A stretch of DNA of 43,457 nt, taken from sequence record JX865427; one strand, written 5' to 3'. Under the pieces are notes generated by a model. It made no database searches and had not been told where the DNA came from. It was given only the letters and a program-made list of their open reading frames with translations. The translations under genes were made by a program, and so were the position numbers. This stretch comes from Escherichia phage JL1. Shown here piece after piece: positions 2,075 through 43,457 of this stretch. The first letter of the stretch is position 1. Each line of letters opens with the position of its first letter.

Positions 2075-3217
2075 TTACTTCAACATTTCCGGGCTAATGG
2101 TTAAGCGCGCTACTTCTCCGTAGTTGGCGCTATAGGTGATGACGTTTGCGCTGCGGCCGGACATCCAACCGCCGCGACTGGCGTAGGCGTCTTTCGCTGC
2201 GAGCGTCCTGTGCTGTTCAACAATCATGTTGCGAGACTCGACAATCTTCTGGTGGTGCAAATGACCTACGTGCGCGTAGCTGTATTCGCTCGCCCCGAAC
2301 GCCTGTCGGAATTTAGCGATCATAACCTGCTCGATAACATCGAATCGCGCTTTGTGCCCGTGGTGGAAGAATAGCGTGGTCTTTCCGTGTTGCACCATTT
2401 TGTAGACATCCGGGGACGTGTCCACATCGACGCGCGGCTCGTTCTCATACAGGGTATTGAACATCTCAGCGAGCCAAATCATACCCGATTCGTCATGATT
2501 ACCCTGGACGATTAGCAATTTGACTTTGTGGTGTTTTTGCAGCGCCAGGTCTACCACGTTGCGCACCATGCGAATCATGTAGCGGACAAGTTTCTGGTAT
2601 CGGGTGTCGGCGTCAAGTACGTGACCGCTTGCCGGTGTGACGGCATCAAGGCTATCAAAGTGCGCCATATCCCCGAGGATATTGATCACGGCAGTGCCTG
2701 CGTCTGGTGCGCGGGCGAAGGCTTCGACAAACCAGCGGTAGAACAGGTCTTCGGCGATCGCCATATCCCAGTCTTCGCCAGTCTCCTCGCCCCAGGCCAA
2801 CATCCCCAGGTGGAAGTCTGACACGGTGTACAGGTTGAGCAAGTCGAGCGCCTGGATCGGTACTGGCTGGGCTTTTACGGGCGCTGCCGGTGTGATTTCG
2901 CTGTTCATACCCTCGACAACAGCGCGCATGGCTTCGAGTTGGCGCTCTTTGTCCTGCTCAGTGATGACCCACGACATGACCTCTTCGCCATTGCCGCGCA
3001 CCAGGGCCGATACGCGCTTAACCCCAAAGCCATCGGCAACGCGCTTGCGGATTACGGCATCATTACCGTGACCAATCCCCTTTTTCGACAGGCGGGCTTT
3101 GCGCATGTAGACATTTCGAAGTGCAATGCCGTACTTCTTCGCAATCTCCTTAACCGTAGTCCCTGCCTGAATTTCTGCGATCAATTGCTCATCGGTAATT
3201 TTAGTTTGCGGGTGCAT
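2075..3217 (-). CDS. HTH domain fused to calcineurin-like metallophosphoesterase
   Basis: N-terminal HTH (TVKEIAKKYGIALRNVYMRKARL); phosphoesterase motifs DFHLG, GDMAHFD, GNHDE, HHGH, GHLHH; RBS AGGA upstream of ATG at 3217. Confidence 0.75.
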   Translation of the reverse strand: MHPQTKITDEQLIAEIQAGTTVKEIAKKYGIALRNVYMRKARLSKKGIGHGNDAVIRKRVADGFGVKRVSALVRGNGEEVMSWVITEQDKERQLEAMRAVVEGMNSEITPAAPVKAQPVPIQALDLLNLYTVSDFHLGMLAWGEETGEDWDMAIAEDLFYRWFVEAFARAPDAGTAVINILGDMAHFDSLDAVTPASGHVLDADTRYQKLVRYMIRMVRNVVDLALQKHHKVKLLIVQGNHDESGMIWLAEMFNTLYENEPRVDVDTSPDVYKMVQHGKTTLFFHHGHKARFDVIEQVMIAKFRQAFGASEYSYAHVGHLHHQKIVESRNMIVEQHRTLAAKDAYASRGGWMSGRSANVITYSANYGEVARLTISPEMLK

Positions 3218-3388
3218 ATTTAATTAATTCCTGATTAGTGGACCGGGGACAATATACCACGGTCCGTATGGCGGCGGGCTATATCAATTCGCAAATAACC
3301 ATGCCGATAAACGCCGCGGTGGTCCAGATCGCTAATACCCAAATATCTTTACGTGCCATCTTGATTACTCCTCTCGTTGATTGGTTGC

Positions 3389-3418
3389 AGTATGGCCTCT
3401 ATGTTGGTTGCGAGTCAA
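3389..3418 (-). promoter_or_regulatory. sigma70-like promoter candidate (TTGACT-18-CATACT) for the phosphoesterase/terminase operon
   Basis: Read on minus strand directly downstream of the terminator at 3427-3448; contains two GCAACCAA motif copies. Confidence 0.4.
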
Positions 3419-3426
3419 GCAATAAA

Positions 3427-3448
3427 AAGCCCGGAATTAACCGGGCTT
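3427..3448 (-). terminator. rho-independent terminator ending the lysis cassette
   Basis: Stem aagcccgg / ccgggctt with 6-nt loop, followed on the minus strand by TTTTTATT. Confidence 0.65.
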
Positions 3449-3464
3449 AATTGTTTACGCTGCG

Positions 3465-3621
3465 GGGCCGGATTCCTCCTGCGGTGGTGGGCTTGGCAGC
3501 TTCGCATCAAAGACCCCCGCGTGGCTGATAGTGTCCGCGATGATAGCGCGTGCGCCCGGATCTTCGGTTTTAGCCAGTGCGGCAAGCGCGTCCGCATTAT
3601 GATCAAGAATACTTTTTAACA
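3465..3621 (-). CDS. small hypothetical protein (52 aa)
   Basis: ORF below the track's 60-aa cutoff found by manual translation (MLKSILDHNADALAALAKTEDPGARAII...); GAGGTGA RBS 7 nt upstream of ATG; ends just before the terminator. Confidence 0.3.
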
Positions 3622-3638
3622 TACTGTGTCACCTCATA

Positions 3639-4130
3639 TTATGCTGCGTTACGACCGATTCGCTCGGCAACGTCCCACTGCTTTCCATCAAACAACGCCT
3701 GTCTGCCGATTGCGCGGCGTACCAGACCCTTAAGCACTTCACCACCTTGCTTGCGGAACTGCGGCAGAGTAGCACGGACCTTCGCCCAGTCGCCAAGTCG
3801 CACCGCATCATCGAAATCATTCGCGACGTCATCCGGTACGATCGGACCAGGGCCAGCGTTGATTACCAGGTCCACCAGCGCATCGAATTGCGCCTGGTTA
3901 ATGCTCGGATGTGCGTATTTGTTCACCCAGTCCTCAGCATACGCCACATCGCGCTTGAGCAGTTCCAGCGCTTCTTCGCGGGTAATGCTTCGAGGCGGAT
4001 TAGTGCCGGTATGACCATAACCCCAGGTGTACAGGCCGCGGGCCTGCTCTTTCTTGGTCGCGAAATACGGCACCGGGCTGAAAGCCTCCCATGCTGCCGT
4101 AAATCGTAGACCGTTGTCACTGAATCGCAT
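3639..4130 (-). CDS. endolysin, lysozyme family (GH24-like)
   Basis: 163 aa; lysozyme-like segment GLYTWGYGHTG with typical flanking residues; adjacent to two small membrane-protein genes. Confidence 0.8.
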   Translation of the reverse strand: MRFSDNGLRFTAAWEAFSPVPYFATKKEQARGLYTWGYGHTGTNPPRSITREEALELLKRDVAYAEDWVNKYAHPSINQAQFDALVDLVINAGPGPIVPDDVANDFDDAVRLGDWAKVRATLPQFRKQGGEVLKGLVRRAIGRQALFDGKQWDVAERIGRNAA

Positions 4131-4362
4131 GTTTTACCCCATTCAAAACAGCATTACGCAGTGTGCGCAATGCAAACAGCCAGATTAACGCGGTCCAGGT
4201 GGTATCCGATACGTCTCCTGTTTGCAACAGTCCGATAATACAGATCATTGCCGTTAGCAGATACAGCACCCGACCGAAAATGCCATCCTGGACGGACGGC
4301 GCATACACGTTAAACAGGGACGAAGCCCCGATGATAACAAACAACAGGACGGAGATAATCAT
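4117..4362 (-). CDS. holin/antiholin-like small membrane protein
   Basis: 81 aa with 2-3 hydrophobic helices; overlaps endolysin start and upstream holin stop. Confidence 0.6.
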   Translation of the reverse strand: MIISVLLFVIIGASSLFNVYAPSVQDGIFGRVLYLLTAMICIIGLLQTGDVSDTTWTALIWLFALRTLRNAVLNGVKHAIQ

Positions 4363-4649
4363 TTTGCACCCCCCGGAAGTCGGAACGACGCAATAGTCTC
4401 CCTGATCCGGTCGGCGATTGGCATCCAGAAGATCGCGGTTACGAAGCCCAAACCGGCGACAGTGCGCTCACCCGACAAACCAGCCCACTCAGCGATAGCC
4501 GGTGCGCCAAATATGGCACACAGGAAGCCAACTACGACATACAAAACGAAGTTTAGCGGCCCTTTCGTAGCCTCACCATGAATGCGTGCGCCTACGAAGC
4601 CACCCGCCAGACATGCCAGGGCGAATAGCCACTCGTTTAGCTTATCCAT
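4359..4649 (-). CDS. holin-like membrane protein
   Basis: 96 aa with three hydrophobic segments and a charged C-terminus; first gene of the lysis cassette. Confidence 0.65.
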   Translation of the reverse strand: MDKLNEWLFALACLAGGFVGARIHGEATKGPLNFVLYVVVGFLCAIFGAPAIAEWAGLSGERTVAGLGFVTAIFWMPIADRIRETIASFRLPGGAK

Positions 4650-4650
4650 A

Positions 4651-4690
4651 AAAAAAGTCCCAGTAAGTTTTAGCTCACTGGGACTATATC
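4651..4690 (-). terminator. rho-independent terminator abutting the holin start codon
   Basis: Minus strand: agtcccagtgagctaaaacttactgggact followed by TTTTTTT, then ATG of holin with no intervening Shine-Dalgarno. Confidence 0.6.
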
Positions 4691-5894: not shown

Positions 5895-6221
5895 TTATTT
5901 CGCAAGCTGGGCGAATAGCTCACGCTGGGCTTTAATCCGGGCAACGTTTGTCACTGCCGTCTCGCCGATTCCGAAGCGATACGCCAGGCGTTCACGGGCA
6001 AATGCAAGCGCGTAGTCCTGGATAGCGTTCGCCAACGGCTGGATCTCCGCCATCGTGTCGAAGCTGCGCTCAAGCATACAGGAGATGGCCTGCTGCGTGA
6101 CGCGAACAACGGACCACGCTGCCGCTAGTCTTTCGACCGCTTCCGCTCCTTCACCGGCGAACTCCGCCGCTTCTTGTGCCGCCGCCATAGCCATTGCGTA
6201 ATTCCAGATAATTGCTTTCAT
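5895..6221 (-). CDS. hypothetical protein (Ala-rich)
   Basis: 108-aa ORF; start overlaps upstream stop (ATGA coupling). Confidence 0.5.
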   Translation of the reverse strand: MKAIIWNYAMAMAAAQEAAEFAGEGAEAVERLAAAWSVVRVTQQAISCMLERSFDTMAEIQPLANAIQDYALAFARERLAYRFGIGETAVTNVARIKAQRELFAQLAK

Positions 6222-6397
6222 AGTTCCGTAACCCTCTCAACCAGTTTATGCCCTAAACGATAGCTGTCGCCCCAAAGTAGCAGGCCCATAAATTCATCGA
6301 TGCTAAACGCTCGCCTGCACACAGTGCGAAGCTCCCCGTTGTGGACTACCGTATCGCCGATCTTGATTTCGTGCTTATCAACCATTTCGGTTTTCAT
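6218..6397 (-). CDS. hypothetical protein (59 aa)
   Basis: Start moved to internal ATG (MKTEMVDK) preceded by AGGAGGG RBS and a near-consensus promoter. Confidence 0.5.
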   Translation of the reverse strand: MKTEMVDKHEIKIGDTVVHNGELRTVCRRAFSIDEFMGLLLWGDSYRLGHKLVERVTEL

Positions 6398-6424
6398 GTT
6401 CCGCCCTCCTGTTGGTGTGCAACC

Positions 6425-6453
6425 AATATAGCAGGGTGCCGGGGTGGATGCAA
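6425..6453 (-). promoter_or_regulatory. sigma70-like promoter TTGCAT-17-TATATT
   Basis: Read on minus strand; -35 embedded in ATTGGTTGCAT, second ATTGGTTGCA copy immediately after -10; ~20 nt upstream of RBS/ATG at 6397. Confidence 0.55.
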
Positions 6454-6612
6454 CCAATATTAATCACGCGCATGAAAAAGTTGATCGCTATCTGCTGTGA
6501 CTGCAAATTGCATTTTTCGCCCCACGTTCTGCATCTTGCATTGGTTGCCTAGTTCAGCGACGACCGCAATCCGCAACATGCTGCCGTATATTTTGCAATC
6601 CCGGATTTTATG

Positions 6613-6783
6613 CAGTCTCAGACGAGGGGGGTGACAGACCCCCCGTCTAGTCTGAAAGACTGGGAGTTGTCCCGCCTGTCCCGCTCCCCGCCAGGCCGCG
6701 TAATCCGGGGCGGGACAGGGGTGCTGTCCCGCCTTGTCCCGCCCCTGGTTTGTCCCGCTTTTTGTCCCGCTTACTTTATGCAG
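6613..6783. repeat. structured iteron element, copy A (52-bp hairpin module + 7 TGTCCCGC octamers)
   Basis: 52 nt identical to 33957-34008; contains G6/C6 hairpin, agtct-gaa-agact hairpin, octamers in both orientations including palindrome GGGACAG-N5-CTGTCCC. Confidence 0.8.
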
Positions 6784-6876
6784 TTTTATTGCATAACTAT
6801 GCATTATATTCACACTACACGGCAACCAATGCGACCAGCTAAAAGCACACAAAATGGCAACCAATGCGCGCAAAAT

Positions 6877-9141
6877 TTAATCTTTCAGGTCATCATCTGT
6901 CGCAGAAAGCGTGATGGGGATATCCGATTTGATGACTAAATTCGACGACCCATATATGGCCCCGGTGTGCGGATCTGTATAGAAACCAATCACGCCGCGC
7001 TCGACCATATCGTCGATTGCCTTCGTCGAAGTGCCACCCTTAGCGAGTCCCGCCTGGCGGACAATTGCCGATTTACTGAAACCAGTATGGTCCGGGTTAT
7101 CTTCCATCAGTTTTTCCAGGGCCGCATAGAGCACTTTCTCTTTTTCGTTGCGCGGACCGGCGGCGTTTTCCTCCTTAACCGCTGCTTTGCCCGCGGCCTT
7201 CGCCTGTTCTATAGCGAACGGAGCCAGGGCGACCGGAACGAGGTATAAAGTCTCGTCGCGTGGCGTGGACGCAATTGGTTTGACGTCCCAACCGGCAACA
7301 ACGTCTCCGAAGTCCGGCCCGGTGCTGGTGGACTGGTGCGCCTCGAACGCTTCTGACTTGCGGAGATCCACCTTCACCTTGCACTTGAGCAAGACGAAGC
7401 CACGCGGCGCTTGCTTGATGCCGTTACGTGATTTTTCGTGATACAGGTTAAGTTGTCCCGGCTGGTTGTCGTCCGGTTGTTCCAGGAAGAACGCAGAATC
7501 AACAGCACCATGCAGCGCACCGGATCCGCGTGGGGTTCTGCTGCCGTTTGCACCTTTCGCGGGGTGGTGGATGACGCCCGCACTGCCACCTGTATTTTCC
7601 GCAATGGCTTTCAGCGCTTTGACCACTTCACCCATATCGCTGGCGTTGTTCTCGTCGAACGGTTTAGCCTCGGCGGACCGCAGCGCAACAGTCTGGTTGA
7701 GTGAGTCGAACGCCACCAGGCCAACTGGTTCGCCGTTAGCGGTGCGGTTGATGAAGCTGATAACTTCGCGCAAGCCGGATTTGCTGGTGATATCCCAGCC
7801 GCGTGATTGCAGATCGATAATGTGCAGCTTGTCCAGGTCGTGCTCGTATTTAATCTGCAATGCTTCTTTACGCTGATTTGAGGCTTCGCCACCTTCCGCA
7901 TCGAAATAGAAGCAATGCGACTGGACTACCTTCGCACCACCAAACGGAATACCAGCGGCAACCGCACCCATCTGCCCCAGCACATAGAAGGACTTGCCGA
8001 TGTTCGACTCGCCCGCCATATACCAGGTCGATTTAAAGTTAATCAGACCTTCGATGATCGGGTCGTGTTTACTGAATAGTGCGACCGGCTCGTTATCCAG
8101 ATCCGCATCGGTGCACACGCCGTATTCTTCGCCGTCACCAACCGCATCAACAATATGCTCGTATAAGGATTCGACTTCCTCGTCGTCCAGCCCCGGCAGG
8201 ATGGCGGCGATTTGCTTACGGGACATATTGTGTGGCTCGACGTTCAGGTGGTCCGGGATACCTATAAGACGTAGCGCCAGGTGCTGGTGTCTATTCAGTT
8301 CCGAGCAACACTCGTTGCCGGTGTGCATACACTTGAAACGGATCTCGCCATCCTTGACCATGATAGCCGTTGACCCTTCGCCGCTGTGCAGATGTTCGTT
8401 CGGGCACGGCACTTCATAACCGCGACCGGACGACAGCGGTTCGAATCCTGCCTGGAAGCACCAGTCCAGAATACCGTCCGCCACTGCGTCGTCGCCCTGG
8501 GTAAGCTCGCGGCGTACTTCCTCCTTCTCCACCCCCAGCTTGTCCGCCAGGCGCAGCAGACGACGCACACTGGCGCGCTTGCCGTGGTGGCACTTAATGA
8601 CAGACTGCTGGTGTGGTAGGTACATAAGACGGTTTGTGTCTTTCGTGCAGTCGTCGAAGTCCACATCCGACAGACCAAGTTGGTGTAATAGAGCATACTG
8701 GACACGGCCCAGGTCTTCCGCCGGGACAGGCTTATCAGTGAGCACCAGGAAACGGGCGCAACGCGTTCCGCCCTTCAGCGGGTGGCGGTCGCCGGTAGTG
8801 GTGTGGAATACGTGCTCCAGCCCCGCGTCGATGAAAGCCTTACGGCAGCGGCGTAAAGTGCGGGTGTCGGTGCGGTCAATATCGAAGAACAGGATCGAGC
8901 GGTCCACCGCACTGGTCTTACGACGCAATCCGTCACTGGTATACGCCACGATGCCGTCGGCCTTACGCTTGCGGCGCGCATACTCGGCTTTATCTTCTGT
9001 CTTGTTGATATGCACCGAGGAGATTTCTTTCGCATCTTTGATAAATTCGAAAAATTCATCGGTGGTCATCTGGAAGTTTTCCGCCCTGGCTTTTTCGCCT
9101 TTTTTAGCGGGTCGTGTTACAGCGAATTTAATTAAGCTCAT
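6877..9141 (-). CDS. DNA primase / RecA-family replicative helicase fusion
   Basis: 754 aa; Walker A GESNIGKS in central ATPase domain, N-terminal primase-like region, C-terminal putative DNA-binding region. Confidence 0.8.
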   Translation of the reverse strand: MSLIKFAVTRPAKKGEKARAENFQMTTDEFFEFIKDAKEISSVHINKTEDKAEYARRKRKADGIVAYTSDGLRRKTSAVDRSILFFDIDRTDTRTLRRCRKAFIDAGLEHVFHTTTGDRHPLKGGTRCARFLVLTDKPVPAEDLGRVQYALLHQLGLSDVDFDDCTKDTNRLMYLPHQQSVIKCHHGKRASVRRLLRLADKLGVEKEEVRRELTQGDDAVADGILDWCFQAGFEPLSSGRGYEVPCPNEHLHSGEGSTAIMVKDGEIRFKCMHTGNECCSELNRHQHLALRLIGIPDHLNVEPHNMSRKQIAAILPGLDDEEVESLYEHIVDAVGDGEEYGVCTDADLDNEPVALFSKHDPIIEGLINFKSTWYMAGESNIGKSFYVLGQMGAVAAGIPFGGAKVVQSHCFYFDAEGGEASNQRKEALQIKYEHDLDKLHIIDLQSRGWDITSKSGLREVISFINRTANGEPVGLVAFDSLNQTVALRSAEAKPFDENNASDMGEVVKALKAIAENTGGSAGVIHHPAKGANGSRTPRGSGALHGAVDSAFFLEQPDDNQPGQLNLYHEKSRNGIKQAPRGFVLLKCKVKVDLRKSEAFEAHQSTSTGPDFGDVVAGWDVKPIASTPRDETLYLVPVALAPFAIEQAKAAGKAAVKEENAAGPRNEKEKVLYAALEKLMEDNPDHTGFSKSAIVRQAGLAKGGTSTKAIDDMVERGVIGFYTDPHTGAIYGSSNLVIKSDIPITLSATDDDLKD

Positions 9142-21937: not shown

Positions 21938-23734
21938 TTATTTACCTTCCAGCTTCTCCACTTTATGCAACAGGTGGACGAAGGCGGCACACAGGTCCAT
22001 CAACAGCACGTTACTGTCCAGAGACAGCACATCGTCGGTATACCCGATCTCCTTGCGGTCGACTACAACCTCGTTCCCTTCCTCGTCAACCCCCTTGACG
22101 TCCTCATAAATGGCGTAACCCGGCAGCAAATGCACGTATTCCGGGTCAATCCTTGCCAGGTCCTGCGCGATAAGGCCGTATCGCTGTACGTCAGACTCCT
22201 TATACTTGAACATCGCCGGAAGCCATTGTCGAACTCGGTTGTAACTTTCCTCGCCGTCCGTGTATTTGATTTCTTTTTTAAGGTCGCGGTCTGATAGCGG
22301 CGCTTTCTGGAACTCGTTAACCGACGGGTTGCCGCTGTTACCACTAATAAGCCTGCCGTCCGGTAGGAATCGGAATAGCGCCTCAGTAAAGCCGTCCTTC
22401 CACACATGGACGCGGTAGTCTGATAAGTGGGCATCCCCGGCCCTTACCAGGCCCGCGCGCGTCCAATCCGTGTACCACTTATGCATCGTCTGCCCAACCC
22501 AGCTATCAATCCCGAAAGACGCATTGGATATAATCAAACCGTTACGCTCGACATCATTGAAGACTAGCGATTCACCACCGTTCAGGCGCAACGTGCCAAG
22601 TTTTACTTTATTGTTATCGCCCAACCCGAAATTAGAGCGCGCCTTCGCTGCCGTTGTTGCCGCAGTGCCGCCTTTTTCGATCGGAACGGTGTTTTCAGTG
22701 GCAACAGACCCAAGACCAAGATTAGAGCGCGCCTTCGCTGCCGTTGTTGCCGCAGTGCCGCCTTTTTCGATCGGAACGGTGTTTTCCGTGGCAACAGACC
22801 CAAGACCAAGATTAGAGCGCGCAGCGGCTACCGTCGTCGCGGCGGTTCCCCCTTTCTTGATCGGAACGGTGTTTTCAGTGGCAACAGACCCAAGACCAAG
22901 ATTAGAGCGTGCCGCCGATTTATCAGTTAGCCCCGCCAGGTTGCCGGTTTTGGTTAGCAGATTATCGGCGTTTACGCTTTGTGCCCATTCTTTGGCCTGA
23001 TCGCGAAATCCCTGCGCGGCAGCGCTGGCGGCCTGCGCGTCAGTCTTCGCCGTATTAGCTTTGTCACGAATAACGCCGGTTTCAGTCTTAATCTGGTTCG
23101 TCTGCGTCTTGATGGCCTGCGTATCCGCCTTAATCTTGTCCGTCTGCGTCTTGATGGTATTGGTGGCGTCGTGGACCGCCTGCGTGTCGCTGAGGATTGC
23201 CAGGCTCTGCACCTTGTATCCTTCGGCCTCATTGCGAAATCCTTCGGCCTCATTGCGAAATCCTTGCGCTGCTGCTTCAGACGCGGCGGCTTGTTGTTGC
23301 AGGTTGCGCATCTCAACTGGGTCAACTTCCTTCAGCAATTGCGACAGATAGCCCCATGACATACCCTGCATAACTTGCCCGTTCGGCAGCGTTACCGCGA
23401 TTTCTTCCTCGTCTCCGAAGATTGCGCGCCAGTTGTTTTCGTCCGCGAGCATCAAGCGCAACGCTTTCTGCGCCTGTACTGTTACGCCCATCGTTGCCAG
23501 CGACATGGTATCGCGCTTAACGCCATCCCACGCGAGGCCCGTTGCCGTGGGGCCGTCGAACGGCAGCACAAGCGTAAGCGCGGTGTCGCTTTCTACGGAC
23601 GAGATCGCAACAGTGTAAGGAACTTGCCCCACTACCAGCGATAAGAAGTCGCCTGCTTTAAACGCGGTAAACGTCGTGCCTACCCCGACAACCGCCTTGC
23701 TGTTATTCTTTACGGATAGTGTACCCGCTGCCAT
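21938..23734 (-). CDS. side tail fiber with C-terminal intramolecular chaperone (peptidase S74-like) domain
   Basis: 598 aa; three 30-aa repeats ...GGTAATTAAKARSNLGLGSVATENTVPIEK; C-terminal SDRDLKKEI... region typical of self-cleaving fiber chaperone domains. Confidence 0.8.
   Translation of the reverse strand: MAAGTLSVKNNSKAVVGVGTTFTAFKAGDFLSLVVGQVPYTVAISSVESDTALTLVLPFDGPTATGLAWDGVKRDTMSLATMGVTVQAQKALRLMLADENNWRAIFGDEEEIAVTLPNGQVMQGMSWGYLSQLLKEVDPVEMRNLQQQAAASEAAAQGFRNEAEGFRNEAEGYKVQSLAILSDTQAVHDATNTIKTQTDKIKADTQAIKTQTNQIKTETGVIRDKANTAKTDAQAASAAAQGFRDQAKEWAQSVNADNLLTKTGNLAGLTDKSAARSNLGLGSVATENTVPIKKGGTAATTVAAARSNLGLGSVATENTVPIEKGGTAATTAAKARSNLGLGSVATENTVPIEKGGTAATTAAKARSNFGLGDNNKVKLGTLRLNGGESLVFNDVERNGLIISNASFGIDSWVGQTMHKWYTDWTRAGLVRAGDAHLSDYRVHVWKDGFTEALFRFLPDGRLISGNSGNPSVNEFQKAPLSDRDLKKEIKYTDGEESYNRVRQWLPAMFKYKESDVQRYGLIAQDLARIDPEYVHLLPGYAIYEDVKGVDEEGNEVVVDRKEIGYTDDVLSLDSNVLLMDLCAAFVHLLHKVEKLEGK
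22621..22910. repeat. three tandem 90-bp repeats inside the tail fiber gene
   Basis: Units 22631-22720 and 22721-22810 differ at ~1 nt; third unit diverged centrally. Confidence 0.8.
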
Positions 23735-23814: not shown

Positions 23815-24036
23815 ATGAAAACATTAATTGTGATTTGTGCGGTTCTTCTGTCCGGCTGTGCGGTAGAACGTAACAACGGCGATTGCATTACGGTCGCTTA
23901 CGGTAGCTGCATGTTGCGCTACGTTGACGGGCAAAAAGCCCCTGCCGGGGATGTTGACATGCGCTTCGCTGGCCTGTCCGCGGATAGTGACGGCAACTTC
24001 TCTGGTACGGTATCAGTTAAATCTCGGGAGTGGTAA
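23815..24036 (+). CDS. small lipoprotein
   Basis: Signal peptide MKTLIVICAVLLSGC with lipobox LSGC; AGGGGA RBS. Confidence 0.65.
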   Translation: MKTLIVICAVLLSGCAVERNNGDCITVAYGSCMLRYVDGQKAPAGDVDMRFAGLSADSDGNFSGTVSVKSREW

Positions 24037-24038
24037 TT

Positions 24039-25004
24039 ATGGGCGCTGGAATACTTATAGACTACAACGACGGAAGGCCGGTGATGGAGATAACCGCCGG
24101 ACTTCGCGCTCCGTCATACTGCACTACGTTTGATCAGCGCTGCCAGTCCGATAAGACGCTGACCATTAATACTCCGCTAACCCCAGGGTCGGATCTTGTC
24201 GTTGCGCTCACGCGTCCGGTAGAAGTGATTGAGGTCTTCGACCAAACGCTGGTGCTCCCGGACCCATTCTACGTTACGTCTGTACAACGTAACGGGGATA
24301 ACGGCATTATTCTACGAGGTGCGGACGCGTATAACGCATACAGTGGTCTTCCGCAATGGGCTGGGATAATTATGGAAGTGCTGCCGGTTGGGTCGCGCAA
24401 TGCGGGCTTACTGGTGGCGAACTCTACTGACTTCACCGCGATATCGAACGTATCCCGGCTAATGACCTGCCGATACGCGCAGCGCGTGCGTGTAAACGGC
24501 AGTATGCCGCTGCCGGTGGGTGGCATCCCGTTCGCGCGCTGGGATGACGGCAACGTGTCGGTAGGATTCGACGGCGGTAGTATTATCGTCCGCAACGCGT
24601 CCTATGGTGGTATTGACGATGTGGCGGCTTCGGTGGATATGGACCTGGTGATCTTCAACAATACGCCGCCAGCACCGGGGACCGGCATTACCATGACTAA
24701 CAACCAGGGCCAGGTCACGTTCTCCACTGTGAATAAGCCGTTTGTCCTCAATTCCGTAATTAATATCAGCACTGGTGGTCAGAATATTGGCAACAGCCTC
24801 GTACAGCTCTCATATACCGGCGCGCTCATTAAGAACAACAGCGGATATAACCACGTGCGAATGAACGGGATACGCATGGCGGGCAACGTGGTTAGCGCGG
24901 CACGAAATCGCGTGATCGGTAACTACTCACGGCAGCAATTCCAGATGCCTAATCGTAATGTAACCGTACCCACACCGTTACTAGTCATCCCTAACATGTA
25001 TTAG
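24039..25004 (+). CDS. hypothetical beta-rich protein
   Basis: 322 aa, G/N/T/V/S-rich without signal peptide; GGGAG RBS; co-oriented with the lipoprotein, opposite to flanking tail genes. Confidence 0.5.
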   Translation: MGAGILIDYNDGRPVMEITAGLRAPSYCTTFDQRCQSDKTLTINTPLTPGSDLVVALTRPVEVIEVFDQTLVLPDPFYVTSVQRNGDNGIILRGADAYNAYSGLPQWAGIIMEVLPVGSRNAGLLVANSTDFTAISNVSRLMTCRYAQRVRVNGSMPLPVGGIPFARWDDGNVSVGFDGGSIIVRNASYGGIDDVAASVDMDLVIFNNTPPAPGTGITMTNNQGQVTFSTVNKPFVLNSVINISTGGQNIGNSLVQLSYTGALIKNNSGYNHVRMNGIRMAGNVVSAARNRVIGNYSRQQFQMPNRNVTVPTPLLVIPNMY

Positions 25005-37840: not shown

Positions 37841-38941
37841 TTAGGACGCTGTGGTCGCAGTCAGCGTAACCAGTACGCCCGCCGTTTCCTTGATGTGACG
37901 GGTAGGCACTGCCTGTGCGGCCTGGGTCTTACGACGGACTTTAGTATCGCCATCACCCACCGCACCAACGTCCTGAACGGTTGCCGGTGCGTTGTCTACC
38001 TGGCCCTGATCCAGCTCCCAGTTGTCCTTAGTGGTGATATCGGACAGCGTGAACGAGCGTACCCCTTCGATCGGAGTACGAGCGGACGCCTTCAGACGAT
38101 AGCCTTTAACAGCCACGTTGAAGTCGAACTCGCCCTGCCACCAGCGCTCAATGTTCTCGTTACCGCCTTTTTCCTGCGCCAGCATATCAAGGCCGTTGGT
38201 GGTAACTGCAACCGCGCCAGGGACCAGACCCAGCATTTTACCCGCGCCCATTGCATCGGCAGCGGCATCGGAGATAATGAAACGGCGGCCCAGACCATCG
38301 CCCATTACCTGCAGATCGCCGATCGCGAATACCTGCTCGGCAGATGGAAGCGCCTGGTAAGCGATGAAGTTTGCCCAGGTAACGCCATCCATAAACCAGG
38401 ACTTAATCAAAGACGCCTGATCGCCGAACTTAGAAGCCGCCAGCGGGAAGTCTGCCAGGGTCGGGAATGTACGACCGCCAACGCCGTCAACGCGAGCCGG
38501 TTGGGTGTAGTTTGCCGCTGTGTTGCTTTCGATAGCCGCTTTACCCGCGCCGATACCAGCTTTCAGATAGTGCAGCATAATCGCTTGAGTTGCCTGTGCC
38601 GCAATCTCAGCCGCAACGCTGTTAACGTTGGTTTCGATTTTAGCCATCATGGCCTTCGTGATCGCAACCGGACCCACTTTCGCGGAAAGGTTAACCGAGT
38701 TGGTCAGCATACGCGCCAGCACTTTTGCGGTTGCCGGTGTACCGACAGGGGCATAGGCGTTACGGTCGGTAACGAGGTTGGCGATCAAGCCTACGGACAT
38801 TTTTTCTACAACGTCCTTAAGCACTTCACCCGTACCGAGAACAACAGCGCCGTTAGCGGCAGCGTTGAACACGTTCAGGTTATCGGGAATCATTTGCGTA
38901 ACCGCGGTGACGAGTTTACGCTGGAACACTGTTAAAGACAT
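37841..38941 (-). CDS. major capsid protein
   Basis: 366 aa; position after the scaffold gene; AAAGGA RBS; followed by strong terminator. Confidence 0.85.
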   Translation of the reverse strand: MSLTVFQRKLVTAVTQMIPDNLNVFNAAANGAVVLGTGEVLKDVVEKMSVGLIANLVTDRNAYAPVGTPATAKVLARMLTNSVNLSAKVGPVAITKAMMAKIETNVNSVAAEIAAQATQAIMLHYLKAGIGAGKAAIESNTAANYTQPARVDGVGGRTFPTLADFPLAASKFGDQASLIKSWFMDGVTWANFIAYQALPSAEQVFAIGDLQVMGDGLGRRFIISDAAADAMGAGKMLGLVPGAVAVTTNGLDMLAQEKGGNENIERWWQGEFDFNVAVKGYRLKASARTPIEGVRSFTLSDITTKDNWELDQGQVDNAPATVQDVGAVGDGDTKVRRKTQAAQAVPTRHIKETAGVLVTLTATTAS

Positions 38942-39009
38942 ATTAGAATCCTTTGAGTTGTGAGCATTCGCCCAGTGCCGTTAATGTTACCTTAGATTTA
39001 CGCGCTCGC

Positions 39010-39032
39010 AAAATCGCCCGCTTTCGCGGGCG
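39010..39032 (-). terminator. hairpin attenuator after the scaffold gene
   Basis: Stem cgcccgc / gcgggcg with tetraloop, weak U-tract. Confidence 0.4.
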
Positions 39033-39038
39033 GCCTGC

Positions 39039-39740
39039 TTACTCGTCGCCCATTTTAGCAATGATATCCCCGGCCTGTTTCGTCAAGTCAGTGATACCGA
39101 AGCTGTGTCCCATAGTGATTTTCGACTTCACATCTTCGACGACCTGCGTCGGTTTGCTCGGAGCACCACCGGCTGGCGTGCCAGCCAGGACGGATGCAAA
39201 ATCGGCGTTACTACGGAACTCTTTTTCTAGCTCTTCCATAGTCAGCGCGGAGGGTTTGCCGTCCTTCAGTACCCGCACCTTCAAGCTGCCGTCCTCGCCG
39301 TCTTCCAGCGTGAGGCGGTCCATAACGTGGCGTTGCATGATGCCGGCATTCTTACCGAACAGCTTCGAGGCCAAATCTTTGGCAGCGCTGCCGATGGTTA
39401 AGTCGTGGATCTGCTTGCGGTAGGCTTCGATTTTCCCCGATGTGTCCGCTTCATGTTTTGCGAACTTATCCTTCCAGGATTTATCAATCGCTTCGAGGTC
39501 GCCATTTTTGCGCGCGGCGGCTTCCTCTTTCTCTTTCGCAAGGCGCTCGGCTTCGGCGCGACGTTCGGCTTCTGCTTTCTTCTCGCTCACCAGCTTCGCG
39601 TTGTTGTCTTTCAGACCCTTGATCTCCGCCTGTACTTCTTCGGCGGTCATGAACGTGGATTTATACCCATCACCATCGGCAACAAATAAAGCCTTCATGC
39701 CTTCTGGCAACGCGTCATATTCTGCTTTAGTAAGTTTCAT
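39039..39740 (-). CDS. scaffolding protein
   Basis: Highly charged A/E/K-rich helical sequence immediately upstream of the capsid gene; start set at MKLTKAEY with AGGGGGA RBS. Confidence 0.7.
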   Translation of the reverse strand: MKLTKAEYDALPEGMKALFVADGDGYKSTFMTAEEVQAEIKGLKDNNAKLVSEKKAEAERRAEAERLAKEKEEAAARKNGDLEAIDKSWKDKFAKHEADTSGKIEAYRKQIHDLTIGSAAKDLASKLFGKNAGIMQRHVMDRLTLEDGEDGSLKVRVLKDGKPSALTMEELEKEFRSNADFASVLAGTPAGGAPSKPTQVVEDVKSKITMGHSFGITDLTKQAGDIIAKMGDE

Positions 39741-39880
39741 GCTATCCCCCTGGGATTGTGGCAAAGCGGGCCACCCGCTTGACTTCACGCCTTAATATTA
39801 TCAGTGATAAAAATAATCGCAAAATTCGCTTGCGCTGCTGGAATTGGTTGCACACCAACATAGATATGAAGGAAAACAAA

Positions 39881-40195
39881 ATGACTAACATGACCGTAGC
39901 AACTCCAGTAGACGCCGCAATGGCCCGTTTCAATAAAGCTACTGTAGCGAATACCTTTACCTTTCACGCAATGCGTAACGCGGAAGCGCTGAATCTGTGC
40001 CAGAGCATGAATGCTTCTGAAGCGGCAAAAGCGGCGATCAACTCCGCGACATTCGATAATCCGGCTTGCGGCCTGGTTCCGGCATCTTTCATAAACGCCC
40101 TGGTCGAAGCCTTTAACGATTTCATGTGCGTCGATGCCGTTGAAGCTGTATGTGCTCGCTTAACCTCAACCAGCGGCAACATCAAATTTAACTAA
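39881..40195 (+). CDS. hypothetical protein (opposite-strand insert)
   Basis: AAGGA RBS 7 nt upstream of ATG; ATTGGTTGCA motif in the upstream intergenic region. Confidence 0.5.
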   Translation: MTNMTVATPVDAAMARFNKATVANTFTFHAMRNAEALNLCQSMNASEAAKAAINSATFDNPACGLVPASFINALVEAFNDFMCVDAVEAVCARLTSTSGNIKFN

Positions 40196-40234
40196 ACCAA
40201 TCGGGGCGAAAGCCCCAATAATGAGGACACAAAA

Positions 40235-40459
40235 ATGAGACTGACGAAAGATATTAAACATCAGATCCTGGCTAACATCCTGCGCGACCACGAAATCGCA
40301 ACCGAAGCCAAACAAATCATGATGGACTCACGCGATCTGGCGTACGCAATCACGCTGGACTGTATGCCGGACGGCATTCGCACATTCGCCGCGCTAACGA
40401 AAAAGGGGCCATTACGGCCCCTTAATTATTTGCTGCAACTCCAGCACCTGCGCCCTTAG
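40235..40459 (+). CDS. hypothetical protein (opposite-strand insert; 3' end uncertain)
   Basis: GAGGA RBS 7 nt upstream of ATG; reading frame runs through the bidirectional terminator. Confidence 0.4.
   Translation: MRLTKDIKHQILANILRDHEIATEAKQIMMDSRDLAYAITLDCMPDGIRTFAALTKKGPLRPLNYLLQLQHLRP
40403..40419. terminator. bidirectional hairpin terminator
   Basis: ggggcc-atta-cggcccc with A-run upstream and T-rich tract downstream. Confidence 0.55.
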
Positions 40460-40651
40460 CTTCGCCCCGCATTCCATATTTTTAACATCAATCATCAAAT
40501 CTTCGTCGGGGTCCGCAGACGGGTTATCGAACTTGCACGGCGGTCGCAGTGCCGACTCCGTTAGCGGCATCAACGGCGCGTTGCTTGATCCGCACGCGCT
40601 CAGCATCAAAACTACAATCAGGGCGGTTAGGGCGCGTAACATATTTAACAA
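40412..40651 (-). CDS. o-spanin (Rz1-like outer-membrane lipoprotein)
   Basis: Signal peptide with lipobox LSAC, Pro-rich mature region; out of frame and partly embedded in the upstream gene. Confidence 0.6.
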   Translation of the reverse strand: MLNMLRALTALIVVLMLSACGSSNAPLMPLTESALRPPCKFDNPSADPDEDLMIDVKNMECGAKLRAQVLELQQIIKGP

Positions 40652-40853
40652 CCTCTTTCGTGATAGTCCGGTATTCTACGTCGCGGGCTTGTTCGGCCTG
40701 CACGGAGCGCTCAACAACTTTAGTTTGCTGCCGTTGGGCTTTGGCTTGCGCTTCTTGCGCCGCCTCCGCCACTACGCCAGCGCGATAGGAGTCGCCTAGC
40801 CAGAATCCTACCGCCAGACCGATAACCAGTCCAATCGCTGCATACTTAATCAC
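40524..40853 (-). CDS. i-spanin (Rz-like)
   Basis: N-terminal TM helix followed by A/Q/E-rich helical periplasmic domain; overlaps the lipoprotein ORF. Confidence 0.6.
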   Translation of the reverse strand: MIKYAAIGLVIGLAVGFWLGDSYRAGVVAEAAQEAQAKAQRQQTKVVERSVQAEQARDVEYRTITKEVVKYVTRPNRPDCSFDAERVRIKQRAVDAANGVGTATAVQVR

Positions 40854-41949
40854 GCCATAACCCCCGGTTTTTAAGCTGTGCGATAGTCATTAGTTCGCCG
40901 GAATCGGAGAACATCTTCGGCACTTTCACGCCGCGCATAATCTGGTCGGCGCGTTGCACTCCGTATAATTCTTCCAGGATATGGCGCGGCTGGCGCTGCA
41001 CCCATGAGAAGAAATCAGTCTGCGCGTCGACCTGCTCACTCAGCAACCTACCCGCGTCAGCCTTCAGTGCCGGACGCTTACCACTGGGCCAATCTTCCAT
41101 GCCTTTAACCTTCCACGTCTCCGTAGACCGGCAGCAATAATGCAACTTGCCCGGACCAGCGCCATATTGTGATCCAGCCACCACTTTCCCGCCGCGCTTT
41201 CCTTTGGTGTCGGGAGTAACATCAACCGGATAAAACAGGCGATCGCGTAGCTGGCACATGGGAGAAGTATGCGTGTCCAATGTAGATAACCATTGGCGAC
41301 CTTCGAGAATATCGTCATTTGCTTTTACCATTAGTTCGCGGGCGGTCGCCGCATAGTGGTTGACTGCGGACTTAACAACGCTTGAGAGAGCTTGCGCACT
41401 ACGACCGCCGAGCGCGCGCCTCACGTCCGCTATAATTTCCAAAGTCGGCTTACCCTGGATGAATCCCGCGCGCACCTGATTGCCGATCTGCGTCCTGGTC
41501 CATTCTGAAAGTGAATCGGGCCATTGCATCATCGTATTACCCTGGAACGGGTTTTTAATCGCAGTCGCTGCGATCTGCGCACCTGTCACCACGCCCACCA
41601 CCTCGATCGCAGGTACGGCGACCACCGGCTGGATCGCTGCCGTTAATGTGTCGGTGAGATAATCAGCCTCCGTGTCGGCGAACTCCTGAAGGCTTTCAGC
41701 CAACGCCTTAAACTCGGTGCGCAATTCTGATTTAACGGTCTTGTCGATTTGCGTTAGCAGGGTGGAAAGTGCCCTGTTATTCATTGACGATTTGCCATCA
41801 AGCAACTCGGTCAGCTTTCCCAGTAATGTGGGCCGGAACTTCTCCCACATGGACAGCACCCTTCGCGCCTGGTCATTGCTAAGGCGCTGGGTGAAGATGT
41901 GACGGCGAATCATTCGATCCGCCATATATTGATTAATTGTCTTCGCCAT
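40846..41949 (-). CDS. head morphogenesis protein (Mu F / SPP1 gp7-like)
   Basis: 367 aa directly downstream of and overlapping the portal gene. Confidence 0.75.
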   Translation of the reverse strand: MAKTINQYMADRMIRRHIFTQRLSNDQARRVLSMWEKFRPTLLGKLTELLDGKSSMNNRALSTLLTQIDKTVKSELRTEFKALAESLQEFADTEADYLTDTLTAAIQPVVAVPAIEVVGVVTGAQIAATAIKNPFQGNTMMQWPDSLSEWTRTQIGNQVRAGFIQGKPTLEIIADVRRALGGRSAQALSSVVKSAVNHYAATARELMVKANDDILEGRQWLSTLDTHTSPMCQLRDRLFYPVDVTPDTKGKRGGKVVAGSQYGAGPGKLHYCCRSTETWKVKGMEDWPSGKRPALKADAGRLLSEQVDAQTDFFSWVQRQPRHILEELYGVQRADQIMRGVKVPKMFSDSGELMTIAQLKNRGLWRD

Positions 41950-43453
41950 TGTCCGCTACCTTGTCCTGGTCTTCTTCGGTAGATTCTACCGCATCCGGGG
42001 ACATTTGAGGCAATGGATTCTGATTTCGCAGTTCGTCTTCCACCTGCTCGACGGTTTGCGAGTCATCGATAACGCCCTGGGCCATCATCCACTTGATAAA
42101 GTCCGCCAGACGGACCGTACCGGTCTGCACACCCGCCATCATTGCGGTCATAAGCTGTGCATCCACCGTGATCTCGGTGTAGAACTTATTCAGCGTTACA
42201 CGTTGATCTGCGGTGTCCCCCGTGAACAGCTTGACGATTTGCAGCGCACGGTTGAAAGCCTTCTCAACGTTACCGGCAATAAGTGACAGGATACTGTTAT
42301 CAGTCTGCGCATCGTAGGCCGCTTCAGTTGCCGTCTTAGGTGCGGTCCCCTTCTCGACCAGGGCCGCGCCCAGTTTAGCCATTTGCAATTCGCGTCGCTC
42401 ACACAGCGCAACTGACAGGTTTCGCTCCTCCGCCTGAAGCAGTTTAGCGTCCATGTTCTGACCCAGGATGACGCCTTTAGTTGCCCCGAGCGCGATGCCG
42501 CCCTTCAGGTTTTTATCAGCCCATGATTGGGTCAAGCCGGTCGCAACTAGGGTAGGTTGACCTACGATGTGCGCAATCTCTGCGACGTCAGCTTCGGCGT
42601 TGTAGTGCTTAATGTTGATGGACGCGATATCCGCCAGCGGTGCGGCATCTGGTGTCGCATTGTTATCCACCGCGCCACACCAACAGAAAGGCAGTTGAGT
42701 AAGCGCATTACCGTCGGCATCCACCAGCGGCACAAGGTCGGTGCGGGTGAAGCCACGCGGCAAGTCCATTTGCACTTCGGACGTGTCCGCGTTGTAAAAC
42801 CAGCGGCGGGCGTGTGCCACACCGTTAATCATGCGAAGCTCAGTCCAGATCGTTACTTCGTGGTTTGCGAAGTCGTCCGGGTCTTCGGTGCTGATTTCAT
42901 CCGTCTCCTTCAGCACGATTAGCGTGTCGACGCCGTGTGTCTGCCGCCAGTTGATGATCTGTTCAGCCGTATACAGGCGGATAAGCGGGCGGTGTGCCGC
43001 CATTTCAGCGGCTGTCTGCGGCACTACGTTACCCAGTTCGTCAAAATGCGCCTGGCGGTCGTAGTCCACCATAAAGCCCGCGCGGCCCGATTGCAGCACT
43101 TCCGACATAGCGCCGCGCAGGAGTTGCGCCAGCGGCATCCCGCTGCCGTCTACGTCATCAATCAGGTCAGCCATTGCCCCGGAAATGTCCATACTCACCG
43201 GTTTGGCGAAGGCCACGCCTAACAGTGCATTCAGTGTGCGGGCGGTGGCGTTCAGGAAGACAGCGCGTTGCTTATATGCCTTATAGCGTGCCCGTGATTT
43301 CGGGTCGGTGGTGTCGCCGCTGGCTGGGTGTGGCAGGTACAATGGTCCGCACGCCTTCACGGCTCGCTCCCCTGCTACGCAGTCACGGATCATTTTCCAC
43401 TCGGGCGCGATGCGCGCATAGAGCGGGTGCTGGTTGTCAACGTTAACGGTCAT
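41933..43453 (-). CDS. portal protein
   Basis: 506 aa with acidic C-terminal tail; precedes the head morphogenesis gene; its RBS lies across the window ends right after the terL stop. Confidence 0.85.
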   Translation of the reverse strand: MTVNVDNQHPLYARIAPEWKMIRDCVAGERAVKACGPLYLPHPASGDTTDPKSRARYKAYKQRAVFLNATARTLNALLGVAFAKPVSMDISGAMADLIDDVDGSGMPLAQLLRGAMSEVLQSGRAGFMVDYDRQAHFDELGNVVPQTAAEMAAHRPLIRLYTAEQIINWRQTHGVDTLIVLKETDEISTEDPDDFANHEVTIWTELRMINGVAHARRWFYNADTSEVQMDLPRGFTRTDLVPLVDADGNALTQLPFCWCGAVDNNATPDAAPLADIASINIKHYNAEADVAEIAHIVGQPTLVATGLTQSWADKNLKGGIALGATKGVILGQNMDAKLLQAEERNLSVALCERRELQMAKLGAALVEKGTAPKTATEAAYDAQTDNSILSLIAGNVEKAFNRALQIVKLFTGDTADQRVTLNKFYTEITVDAQLMTAMMAGVQTGTVRLADFIKWMMAQGVIDDSQTVEQVEDELRNQNPLPQMSPDAVESTEEDQDKVADNGEDN

Positions 43454-43457
43454 GGTC

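Follow-up and report, generated by a model that had tools for sequence, protein, structure and literature searches.

Introduction

In phage P2 the spanin genes lysB and lysC lie within the lysis cassette, beside holin and endolysin. The spanins gp18.5/18.7 of phage T7 are unlinked to holin and endolysin, and Rz of phage lambda is a protein of 153 aa. The gene pair described here, from Escherichia phage JL1, can be set beside each of these systems. It shares with lambda Rz/Rz1 the presumed mechanism and topology, an o-spanin in the +1 frame and periplasmic cysteines for homodimer disulfides; in both genomes, moreover, the lysis genes precede the terminase genes and share their strand. It differs from Rz/Rz1 in that the genes are overlapped and not embedded, and the pair is shorter (109 aa), less Pro-rich and not contiguous with the endolysin gene. 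The likeness to P2 LysB/LysC concerns the arrangement, with an o-spanin gene that begins within the i-spanin gene in a different frame and runs on past the i-spanin stop, and also the combination of a type II membrane protein with an outer-membrane lipoprotein (Kongari et al. 2018; PMC6139136). We detected, however, no sequence similarity to the P2 proteins, and the JL1 pair follows its endolysin gene only after 6.2 kb, once the terminase, portal and head-morphogenesis genes have been passed. A precedent for spanin genes which are unlinked to holin and endolysin is T4 PseT.3/PseT.2 (PMC6139136), yet the T4 genes are of the separated and not of the overlapped type and their sequence families are unrelated to the JL1 pair.

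The closest described system is the 'Jersey' family (Jersey, SETP3, K1G, HK578, JL1, EP23, SSL-2009a and SO-1; PMC6139136), which corresponds to PHROG 2536 together with 5672/1267. Kongari et al. (2018) placed EP23, HK578, JL1, SSL-2009a and SO-1 in these overlapped i-/o-spanin families, and the JL1 i-spanin of their Table S1 is identical to the product of the gene at 40524-40853 on the minus strand of our sequence (PMC6139136). With this family the protein lengths (109/76 aa), the 119-bp overlap, the +1 frame, the SD string and the genomic position all agree and we see no substantive difference.

We analyzed a sequence of 43,457 nt from phage JL1 (record JX865427), the whole of which we call the window. 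Our conclusion is that the pair is very probably the two-component spanin of Dhillonvirus, with a 'Jersey'-type sequence, overlapped architecture and a place in the head module.

The two genes and their overlap

The locus comprises the following features.

40846-41949, minus strand: head-morphogenesis gene (SPP1 gp7/Mu F-like; phrog_241, E = 1e-112)
40861-40865, minus strand: SD-like GGGGG, 7 nt upstream of the i-spanin GTG, read from the sequence
40524-40853, minus strand: i-spanin gene, 109 aa, GTG start
40652-40657, minus strand: SD-like AAGAGG, 9 nt upstream of the o-spanin ATG at 40642, read from the sequence
40412-40642, minus strand: o-spanin gene, 76 aa, ATG start, lipobox LSA/C with Cys17
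40524-40642, minus strand: dual-coding overlap of 119 nt, o-spanin in the +1 frame of the i-spanin
40403-40423, both strands: bidirectional hairpin resembling an intrinsic terminator, GC-rich stem of 8-9 pairs, T-run on each strand

The i-spanin reading frame was confirmed at these coordinates. Its N-terminus, YAAIGLVIGLAVGFWLG, is hydrophobic with a Kyte-Doolittle mean of 1.9 over the 19 residues 1-19, which bears out the proposal of an N-terminal transmembrane protein. The transmembrane domain is placed at about residues 4-20 and a type II inner-membrane protein is predicted. The periplasmic part is charged (26 of 85 residues), rich in Ala, Gln and Glu, and carries a single cysteine (C80) as well as the conserved motif YRTI..VVKYV..PNR..C.FD. 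A single-sequence AF2 model of low confidence (pLDDT 58.6), which we used for secondary structure alone, has helices at residues 5-72 and 84-97 which are separated by a conserved PNRPDC linker. For the identical JL1 protein Jpred gave 51% helix and the Pepcoil table no coiled coil; for the SSL-2009a protein the table has one coiled coil, at residues 29-56 (Kongari et al. 2018; PMC6139136). The coiled coil that had been proposed is thus borderline, with a negative prediction for the JL1 protein itself, a positive one for SSL-2009a and model helices of low confidence. The i-spanin agrees with the class of two-component spanins, as defined by Summer 2007 and Kongari 2018, in being small, in having one N-terminal transmembrane domain and in the mainly helical, charged periplasmic domain. 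The GGGGG element upstream of the gene sits within the 3' end of the head-morphogenesis gene; Table S1 of Kongari et al. gives the upstream string as agcttaaaaaccGGGGGttatggc, which is the same in JL1, HK578 and EP23 (PMC6139136).

The product of the second gene starts with the signal peptide MLRALTALIVVLMLSA/CGSS, a canonical lipoprotein signal with Gly at position +2, and therefore the o-spanin is predicted to be without an inner-membrane retention signal. NCBIfam yielded only weak matches to lipoprotein signal peptides for this protein. The mature protein has 60 aa, among them cysteines at mature positions 20 and 42. With seven prolines (11.7%) it is only moderately Pro-rich, so that of the Pro-rich lipoprotein which had been proposed the lipoprotein part stands and the Pro-rich part has to be toned down. 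As expected for an o-spanin, it is a small predicted outer-membrane lipoprotein with a lipobox cysteine and without Asp at +2. As start codon we prefer the ATG at 40642 to the TTG at 40651 chosen by the ORF lister, because the TTG directly abuts AAGAGG without any spacing and the ATG follows 9 nt after it; the TTG is an unlikely start. The 231 bp given by RefSeq for the counterpart SSL-2009a gp06 agree with the 76-aa protein from the ATG start.

The o-spanin gene continues for 112 nt beyond the stop of the i-spanin gene. The architecture is therefore overlapped as in P2 and not embedded as in lambda, and the overlapped i-spanin/o-spanin arrangement suggested by the first-pass annotation is confirmed. 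The entries for HK578 and EP23 in Table S4 of Kongari et al. likewise have an overlap of 119 bp and the +1 frame (PMC6139136).

Both reading frames are conserved

We calculated pN/pS from summed Nei-Gojobori counts of six pairs among four Dhillonvirus genomes, which diverge by at most 14% in the 442-nt region. Where only the i-spanin is encoded, pN/pS is 0.10 in its own frame and 0.97 and 1.46 in the other two. In the part belonging to the o-spanin alone (111 nt), the value is again 0.10 in its own frame and rises to 3.4 and 6.3 in the others. Within the overlap we obtained 0.35 for the i-spanin frame, 0.60 for the o-spanin frame and 5.2 for the third frame. The pattern is alike with the more divergent LM40P1 (79% nucleotide identity). 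Judged by these substitution counts, each gene is under purifying selection in its own frame.

More distant relatives were considered too. An overlapping lipoprotein reading frame of 81-87 aa is kept in K1G, SS3e, Tsm2 and pIS4-A at 40-50% protein identity, and the o-spanins of these four phages retain the lipobox cysteine, both further cysteines and the motif DEDL..DV.N.EC. The i-spanin cysteine C80, like the mature o-spanin cysteines C20 and C42, is also kept in all four. VVKYV..PNR..C.FD is found in the i-spanins of K1G and pIS4-A and in a homologous reading frame of Klebsiella phage Kp4886-1. With tblastn the o-spanin matched 645 phage records, in 584 of which at least 80% of the query was covered; the i-spanin had matches in 658 phage records.

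It might be argued that only the 109-aa gene is real and that the lipoprotein frame is open by chance and untranslated, as several GenBank depositors indeed left it without annotation. We regard this as extremely improbable. Outside the overlap the contrast between its own frame and the other two effectively refutes a chance frame, the lipobox cysteine, the two further cysteines and the DEDL..DV.N.EC motif persist at 40-50% identity, and the SD-like AAGAGG stands at 9 nt from the ATG. By its pattern of conservation, the overlapping lipoprotein reading frame is a real gene.

Family membership and earlier annotation

The i-spanin matches phrog_2536 (E = 4.5e-37) and the o-spanin matches phrog_5672 (E = 2.6e-26) and phrog_1267 (E = 3.8e-12), all of which are described as 'Rz-like spanin'. 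In Pfam neither protein matches any family at E ≤ 0.1, including the lambda families PF03245/PF06085, and an NCBIfam scan of both proteins gave no significant family. We also considered membership in the lambda Rz/Rz1 sequence families and rejected it, as there is no Pfam or NCBIfam match and PHROGs alone recognizes both proteins. By these profile comparisons, the predicted pair belongs to a spanin family other than that of lambda Rz/Rz1. Because there is no sequence similarity to lambda Rz/Rz1, the proposed spanin function is based on architecture and context.

Several annotations agree with this assignment. RefSeq uses the label 'Rz-like spanin' for gp05 and gp06 of SSL-2009a and for gp37 and gp38 of YD-2008.s, and in the BASEL phage Bas15 (PaulFeyerabend) the counterpart genes are annotated as i-spanin and o-spanin. 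The paper on vB_EcoS_P78 lists holins 31/32, endolysin 33 and spanin 40. For the Jerseyvirus SeF1 spanins gp9/10 and holins/endolysin gp63-65 were reported, and the PHROG numbers of its spanins and holins equal those of JL1 (PMC9409062). Our search of the literature for spanins in a head module, or for experimental work on the 'Jersey' spanin family, returned mentions at the level of annotation only.

The spanin pair is thus already known; it is a catalogued and conserved feature of Dhillonvirus and matters little beyond correct annotation. In Dhillonvirus and Jersey-like phages it is the head module that contains the spanin genes, and there the overlapped o-spanin often escapes automatic annotation. 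Depositors have often missed it as well: SS3e, Tsm2 and many Dhillonvirus records list one gene only or a 'hypothetical protein'.

Position of the spanin genes in the circular genome

Megablast with positions 39000-43457 retrieved 157 phage records, almost all of them Escherichia phages of the genus Dhillonvirus. The top match of this 4.5-kb region was SSL-2009a (98.0% identity, 100% query coverage). When we joined the last 3000 nt of the window to its first 5000 nt, the joined sequence gave a single HSP of 5000 nt (97.4%) with continuous SSL-2009a sequence, and the 51 nt spanning the junction of end and start are identical to SSL-2009a. The window starts inside the gap after the TerL gene and ends 4 nt past the portal start. 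Because its end and start are collinear with continuous SSL-2009a sequence, the 43,457-bp sequence is a complete Dhillonvirus genome which is circularly permuted and opened between the TerL and the portal gene.

Upstream of the head-morphogenesis gene, across this junction, we find in the order of transcription:

4685-4656, minus strand: terminator-like hairpin upstream of the first holin
4359-4649, minus strand: holin, from the PHROG/Pfam search of lysis genes
4117-4362, minus strand: holin, from the same search
3639-4130, minus strand: endolysin, soluble and of the lysozyme type
3448-3427, minus strand: terminator-like hairpin between endolysin and exonuclease
3217-2075, minus strand: DNA-repair exonuclease
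2054-2034, minus strand: hairpin between exonuclease and TerS
about 1965-1393, minus strand: TerS
1393-8, minus strand: TerL
43453-41933, minus strand: portal

The holin, holin and endolysin matches are to phrog_2359, phrog_2508, phrog_7 and PF00959, and a holin-endolysin cassette at 3639-4649 on the minus strand, consisting of two holins and an endolysin, is thereby confirmed. From the endolysin stop to the i-spanin start we count 3,638 + 2,604 = 6,242 nt on the same strand across the circular junction. The 36 kb that the first-pass annotation had put between the spanins and this cassette are an artefact of linearization, namely the long way round the circle. Distances taken from a linearized circular phage genome can mislead. 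The spanins, downstream of the endolysin by the shorter distance, still lack the linkage to holin and endolysin which is usual and not obligatory. By the annotated coordinates, the corresponding gap is 6,651 nt in SSL-2009a and 7,605 nt in K1G. Whoever engineers lysis-deficient or lysis-tuned Dhillonvirus therapeutics has to handle the outer-membrane step separately, as it is encoded 6 kb away.

The pair had also been placed between the head-morphogenesis and the scaffold genes. This is correct for the nearest neighbors on the minus strand; before the scaffold gene is reached, however, two plus-strand genes and a terminator intervene. In the Dhillonvirus arrangement these genes, in JL1 at about 39866-40195 and at 40235-40459, lie between the o-spanin and the scaffold gene, and converge with the o-spanin gene on the shared terminator. 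The order portal, head-morphogenesis, spanins and scaffold is conserved in 149 of the 157 Dhillonvirus records and recurs in the Guernseyvirinae K1G, SS3e and Tsm2; in these three the scaffold gene is the immediate next gene, in the same orientation. In K1G and SeF1 (PMC9409062) the holins and the endolysin are homologous and their relative position is unchanged. In Salmonella phage SS3e (Jerseyvirus) we noticed in addition an opposite-strand 'amidase' at 3120-3659, between the portal and head-morphogenesis genes, so that a further enzyme of lysis type is encoded within the head module.

A different arrangement is seen in Aeromonas phage pIS4-A (Roufvirus). Here a member of phrog_2536 (E = 6.2e-36), which has its own overlapping lipoprotein frame, is third in an endolysin-holin-spanin cassette. 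This is independent support for a lysis role of the family. The holin of this phage belongs to a different family (phrog_13249). The cassette, at 6185-7216, comes after the head-morphogenesis gene and three opposite-strand genes, and thus roughly in the spanin slot of Dhillonvirus and Guernseyvirinae.

We also looked for other spanins in JL1. Beside the endolysin we sought an alternative spanin or u-spanin and found none; the gap of 422 nt is taken up by a soluble 55-aa reading frame (phrog_11068) and the terminator. Scanning the circular genome for lipoboxes in all six frames, we obtained hits at four loci, two of which are credible genes, the o-spanin and a gene at 23815-24036 on the plus strand; no other spanin candidate emerged genome-wide, the only extra being this lipoprotein gene at 23815 adjacent to the tail fibre gene.

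Since the pair is not adjacent to holin and endolysin, one may ask whether it is instead an accessory system of the envelope without a role in lysis, for example in superinfection exclusion or receptor masking, made up of a Cor- or Llp-like lipoprotein and a membrane protein. Such is the role of many small phage lipoproteins, Cor and Llp among them, and at 23815-24036 the genome does encode a further small lipoprotein, which is of the exclusion type. Exclusion lipoproteins are, however, normally single genes beside receptor-binding genes, just as the 23815 gene is, whereas hallmarks of spanins are the obligatory overlap, in different frames, of a lipoprotein gene with the gene for a type II membrane protein and the conserved cysteines of both proteins. 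Further, the pIS4-A homologue is placed directly after endolysin and holin, and JL1 would be left without a spanin candidate, although a phage of a Gram-negative host is expected to have one. An accessory role thus appears improbable to us and we prefer the two-component spanin.

The segment between endolysin and exonuclease itself varies. At 3279-3617 it has about 340 nt in JL1 versus about 750 nt in SSL-2009a (42889-43638 of that record), and the two do not align. SSL-2009a orf64 ('structural protein with Ig domain') and two small reading frames are replaced in JL1 by the phrog_11068 frame at 3455-3622 and the bidirectional terminator at 3427-3448.

Expression of the spanin genes

The stop of the head-morphogenesis gene overlaps the i-spanin GTG by 8 nt (GTGATTAA). 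This overlap of the i-spanin start with the preceding stop suggests that the i-spanin is translationally coupled to the head-morphogenesis gene. At the other end the TAA stop of the o-spanin lies within the loop of the hairpin at 40403-40423, for which an RNA fold of -25 kcal/mol (z = -2.6) was computed. Joined in this way to the preceding gene and closed off by a terminator, the spanin genes are probably the final cistrons of a transcription unit for packaging, portal and head morphogenesis. Their expression would most likely be late and coincide with that of the packaging and early head proteins. A scan for sigma-70 promoters in 38900-43457 yielded 0 sites versus 3.3 expected, and we accordingly assign a promoter neither to the unit with the spanins nor to that of scaffold and capsid.

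The apparent coupling, as well as the placement between head-morphogenesis and scaffold genes which is conserved in two groups of phages, could also be read as pointing to a role in head assembly or in DNA packaging at the membrane. Head assembly, however, takes place in the cytoplasm, and both products are predicted to be exported or anchored in the membrane and to lie mostly in the periplasm. In pIS4-A, moreover, the homologue travels with endolysin and holin. A role of this kind is in our view very improbable, and we keep to a spanin that is encoded in the head module.

Between the endolysin and the terminase genes there are terminator-like hairpins at 3448-3427 and 2054-2034, and for this reason the spanins and the holins/endolysin are possibly on different transcripts. 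The spanin unit may thus be distinct from the holin-endolysin transcript, barring read-through or antitermination. A strong terminator-like hairpin was also observed directly before the first holin ATG, where a stem of 12 pairs is followed by TTTTTTT at 4656-4685 on the minus strand. In lambdoid late operons a terminator likewise precedes the lysis genes, and the JL1 hairpin might be the point at which antitermination or read-through controls access to them.

Another point concerns the genes beyond the pair. The scaffold gene on the minus strand and the phrog_24635 gene on the plus strand (about 39866-40195) diverge from an intergenic region of about 125 nt at 39741-39865. The scaffold and capsid genes must be transcribed from this region, because the o-spanin terminator and the two opposite-strand genes separate them from the head genes upstream. 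We detected no sigma-70-like promoter in 39741-39865.

Proposed function and evolution

The reading as a spanin pair, put forward by the first-pass annotation, is upheld by the PHROG families, the conservation of both frames, the earlier annotation and the homologue inside the pIS4-A lysis cassette. We suggest, by analogy to lambda Rz/Rz1, that the following steps take place. The i-spanin would be anchored in the inner membrane by its N-terminal helix, and the o-spanin would be lipidated at Cys17 and sorted to the outer membrane. Late in infection the periplasmic domains of both proteins could bind to each other, and the disulfide-linked complexes would thread through the peptidoglycan mesh. 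As for lambda, the murein mesh would hold the spanin complexes in check until the wall is degraded. The two holins would then release the endolysin, the wall would be degraded, and the freed complexes could fuse inner and outer membranes and so complete lysis.

The arrangement of the spanin genes is no peculiarity of the JL1 genome and is probably ancestral to Dhillonvirus and Guernseyvirinae. A more speculative scenario is that the slot after the head-morphogenesis gene is the ancestral home of the whole lysis cassette in this siphovirus lineage, with pIS4-A still keeping endolysin, holin and spanin there. In Dhillonvirus and Guernseyvirinae a cassette of two holins and an endolysin would later have been acquired, or moved, to a place ahead of the terminase genes, and the spanins would have stayed where they were, coupled in translation to the head-morphogenesis gene and shut off by a terminator of their own. 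We consider this possible and rather doubtful. If true, the locus would be a fossil of lysis-cassette turnover, and the dosage of the spanins would be tied to the packaging/head operon rather than to the holin.

The second lipoprotein gene and a truncated neighbor

The lipoprotein encoded at 23815-24036 on the plus strand has 73 aa, starts with MKTLIVICAVLLSG/C and matches phrog_4281. It has a weak Cor-like similarity which is limited to the signal peptide. The gene is flanked by a tail fibre gene (21938-23734, minus strand) and by a moron encoding a phrog_1265 'membrane protein' (24030-25004). The product looks like a superinfection-exclusion or receptor-blocking lipoprotein and not like a spanin.

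The gene convergent with the o-spanin, at 40235-40459 on the plus strand, is a truncated gene of the Nmad5 family (PF18757, E = 2e-14). SSL-2009a and all other top relatives have a product of 254 aa, JL1 one of 74 aa. The 3' three-quarters of the gene have been lost through a deletion of about 600 bp, whose junction is at about 40389-40396; the two alignment blocks that flank it overlap by 8 nt. The deletion ends shortly before the shared terminator, and the tail of the gene, now frameshifted, crosses the hairpin and runs into the o-spanin gene in antisense.
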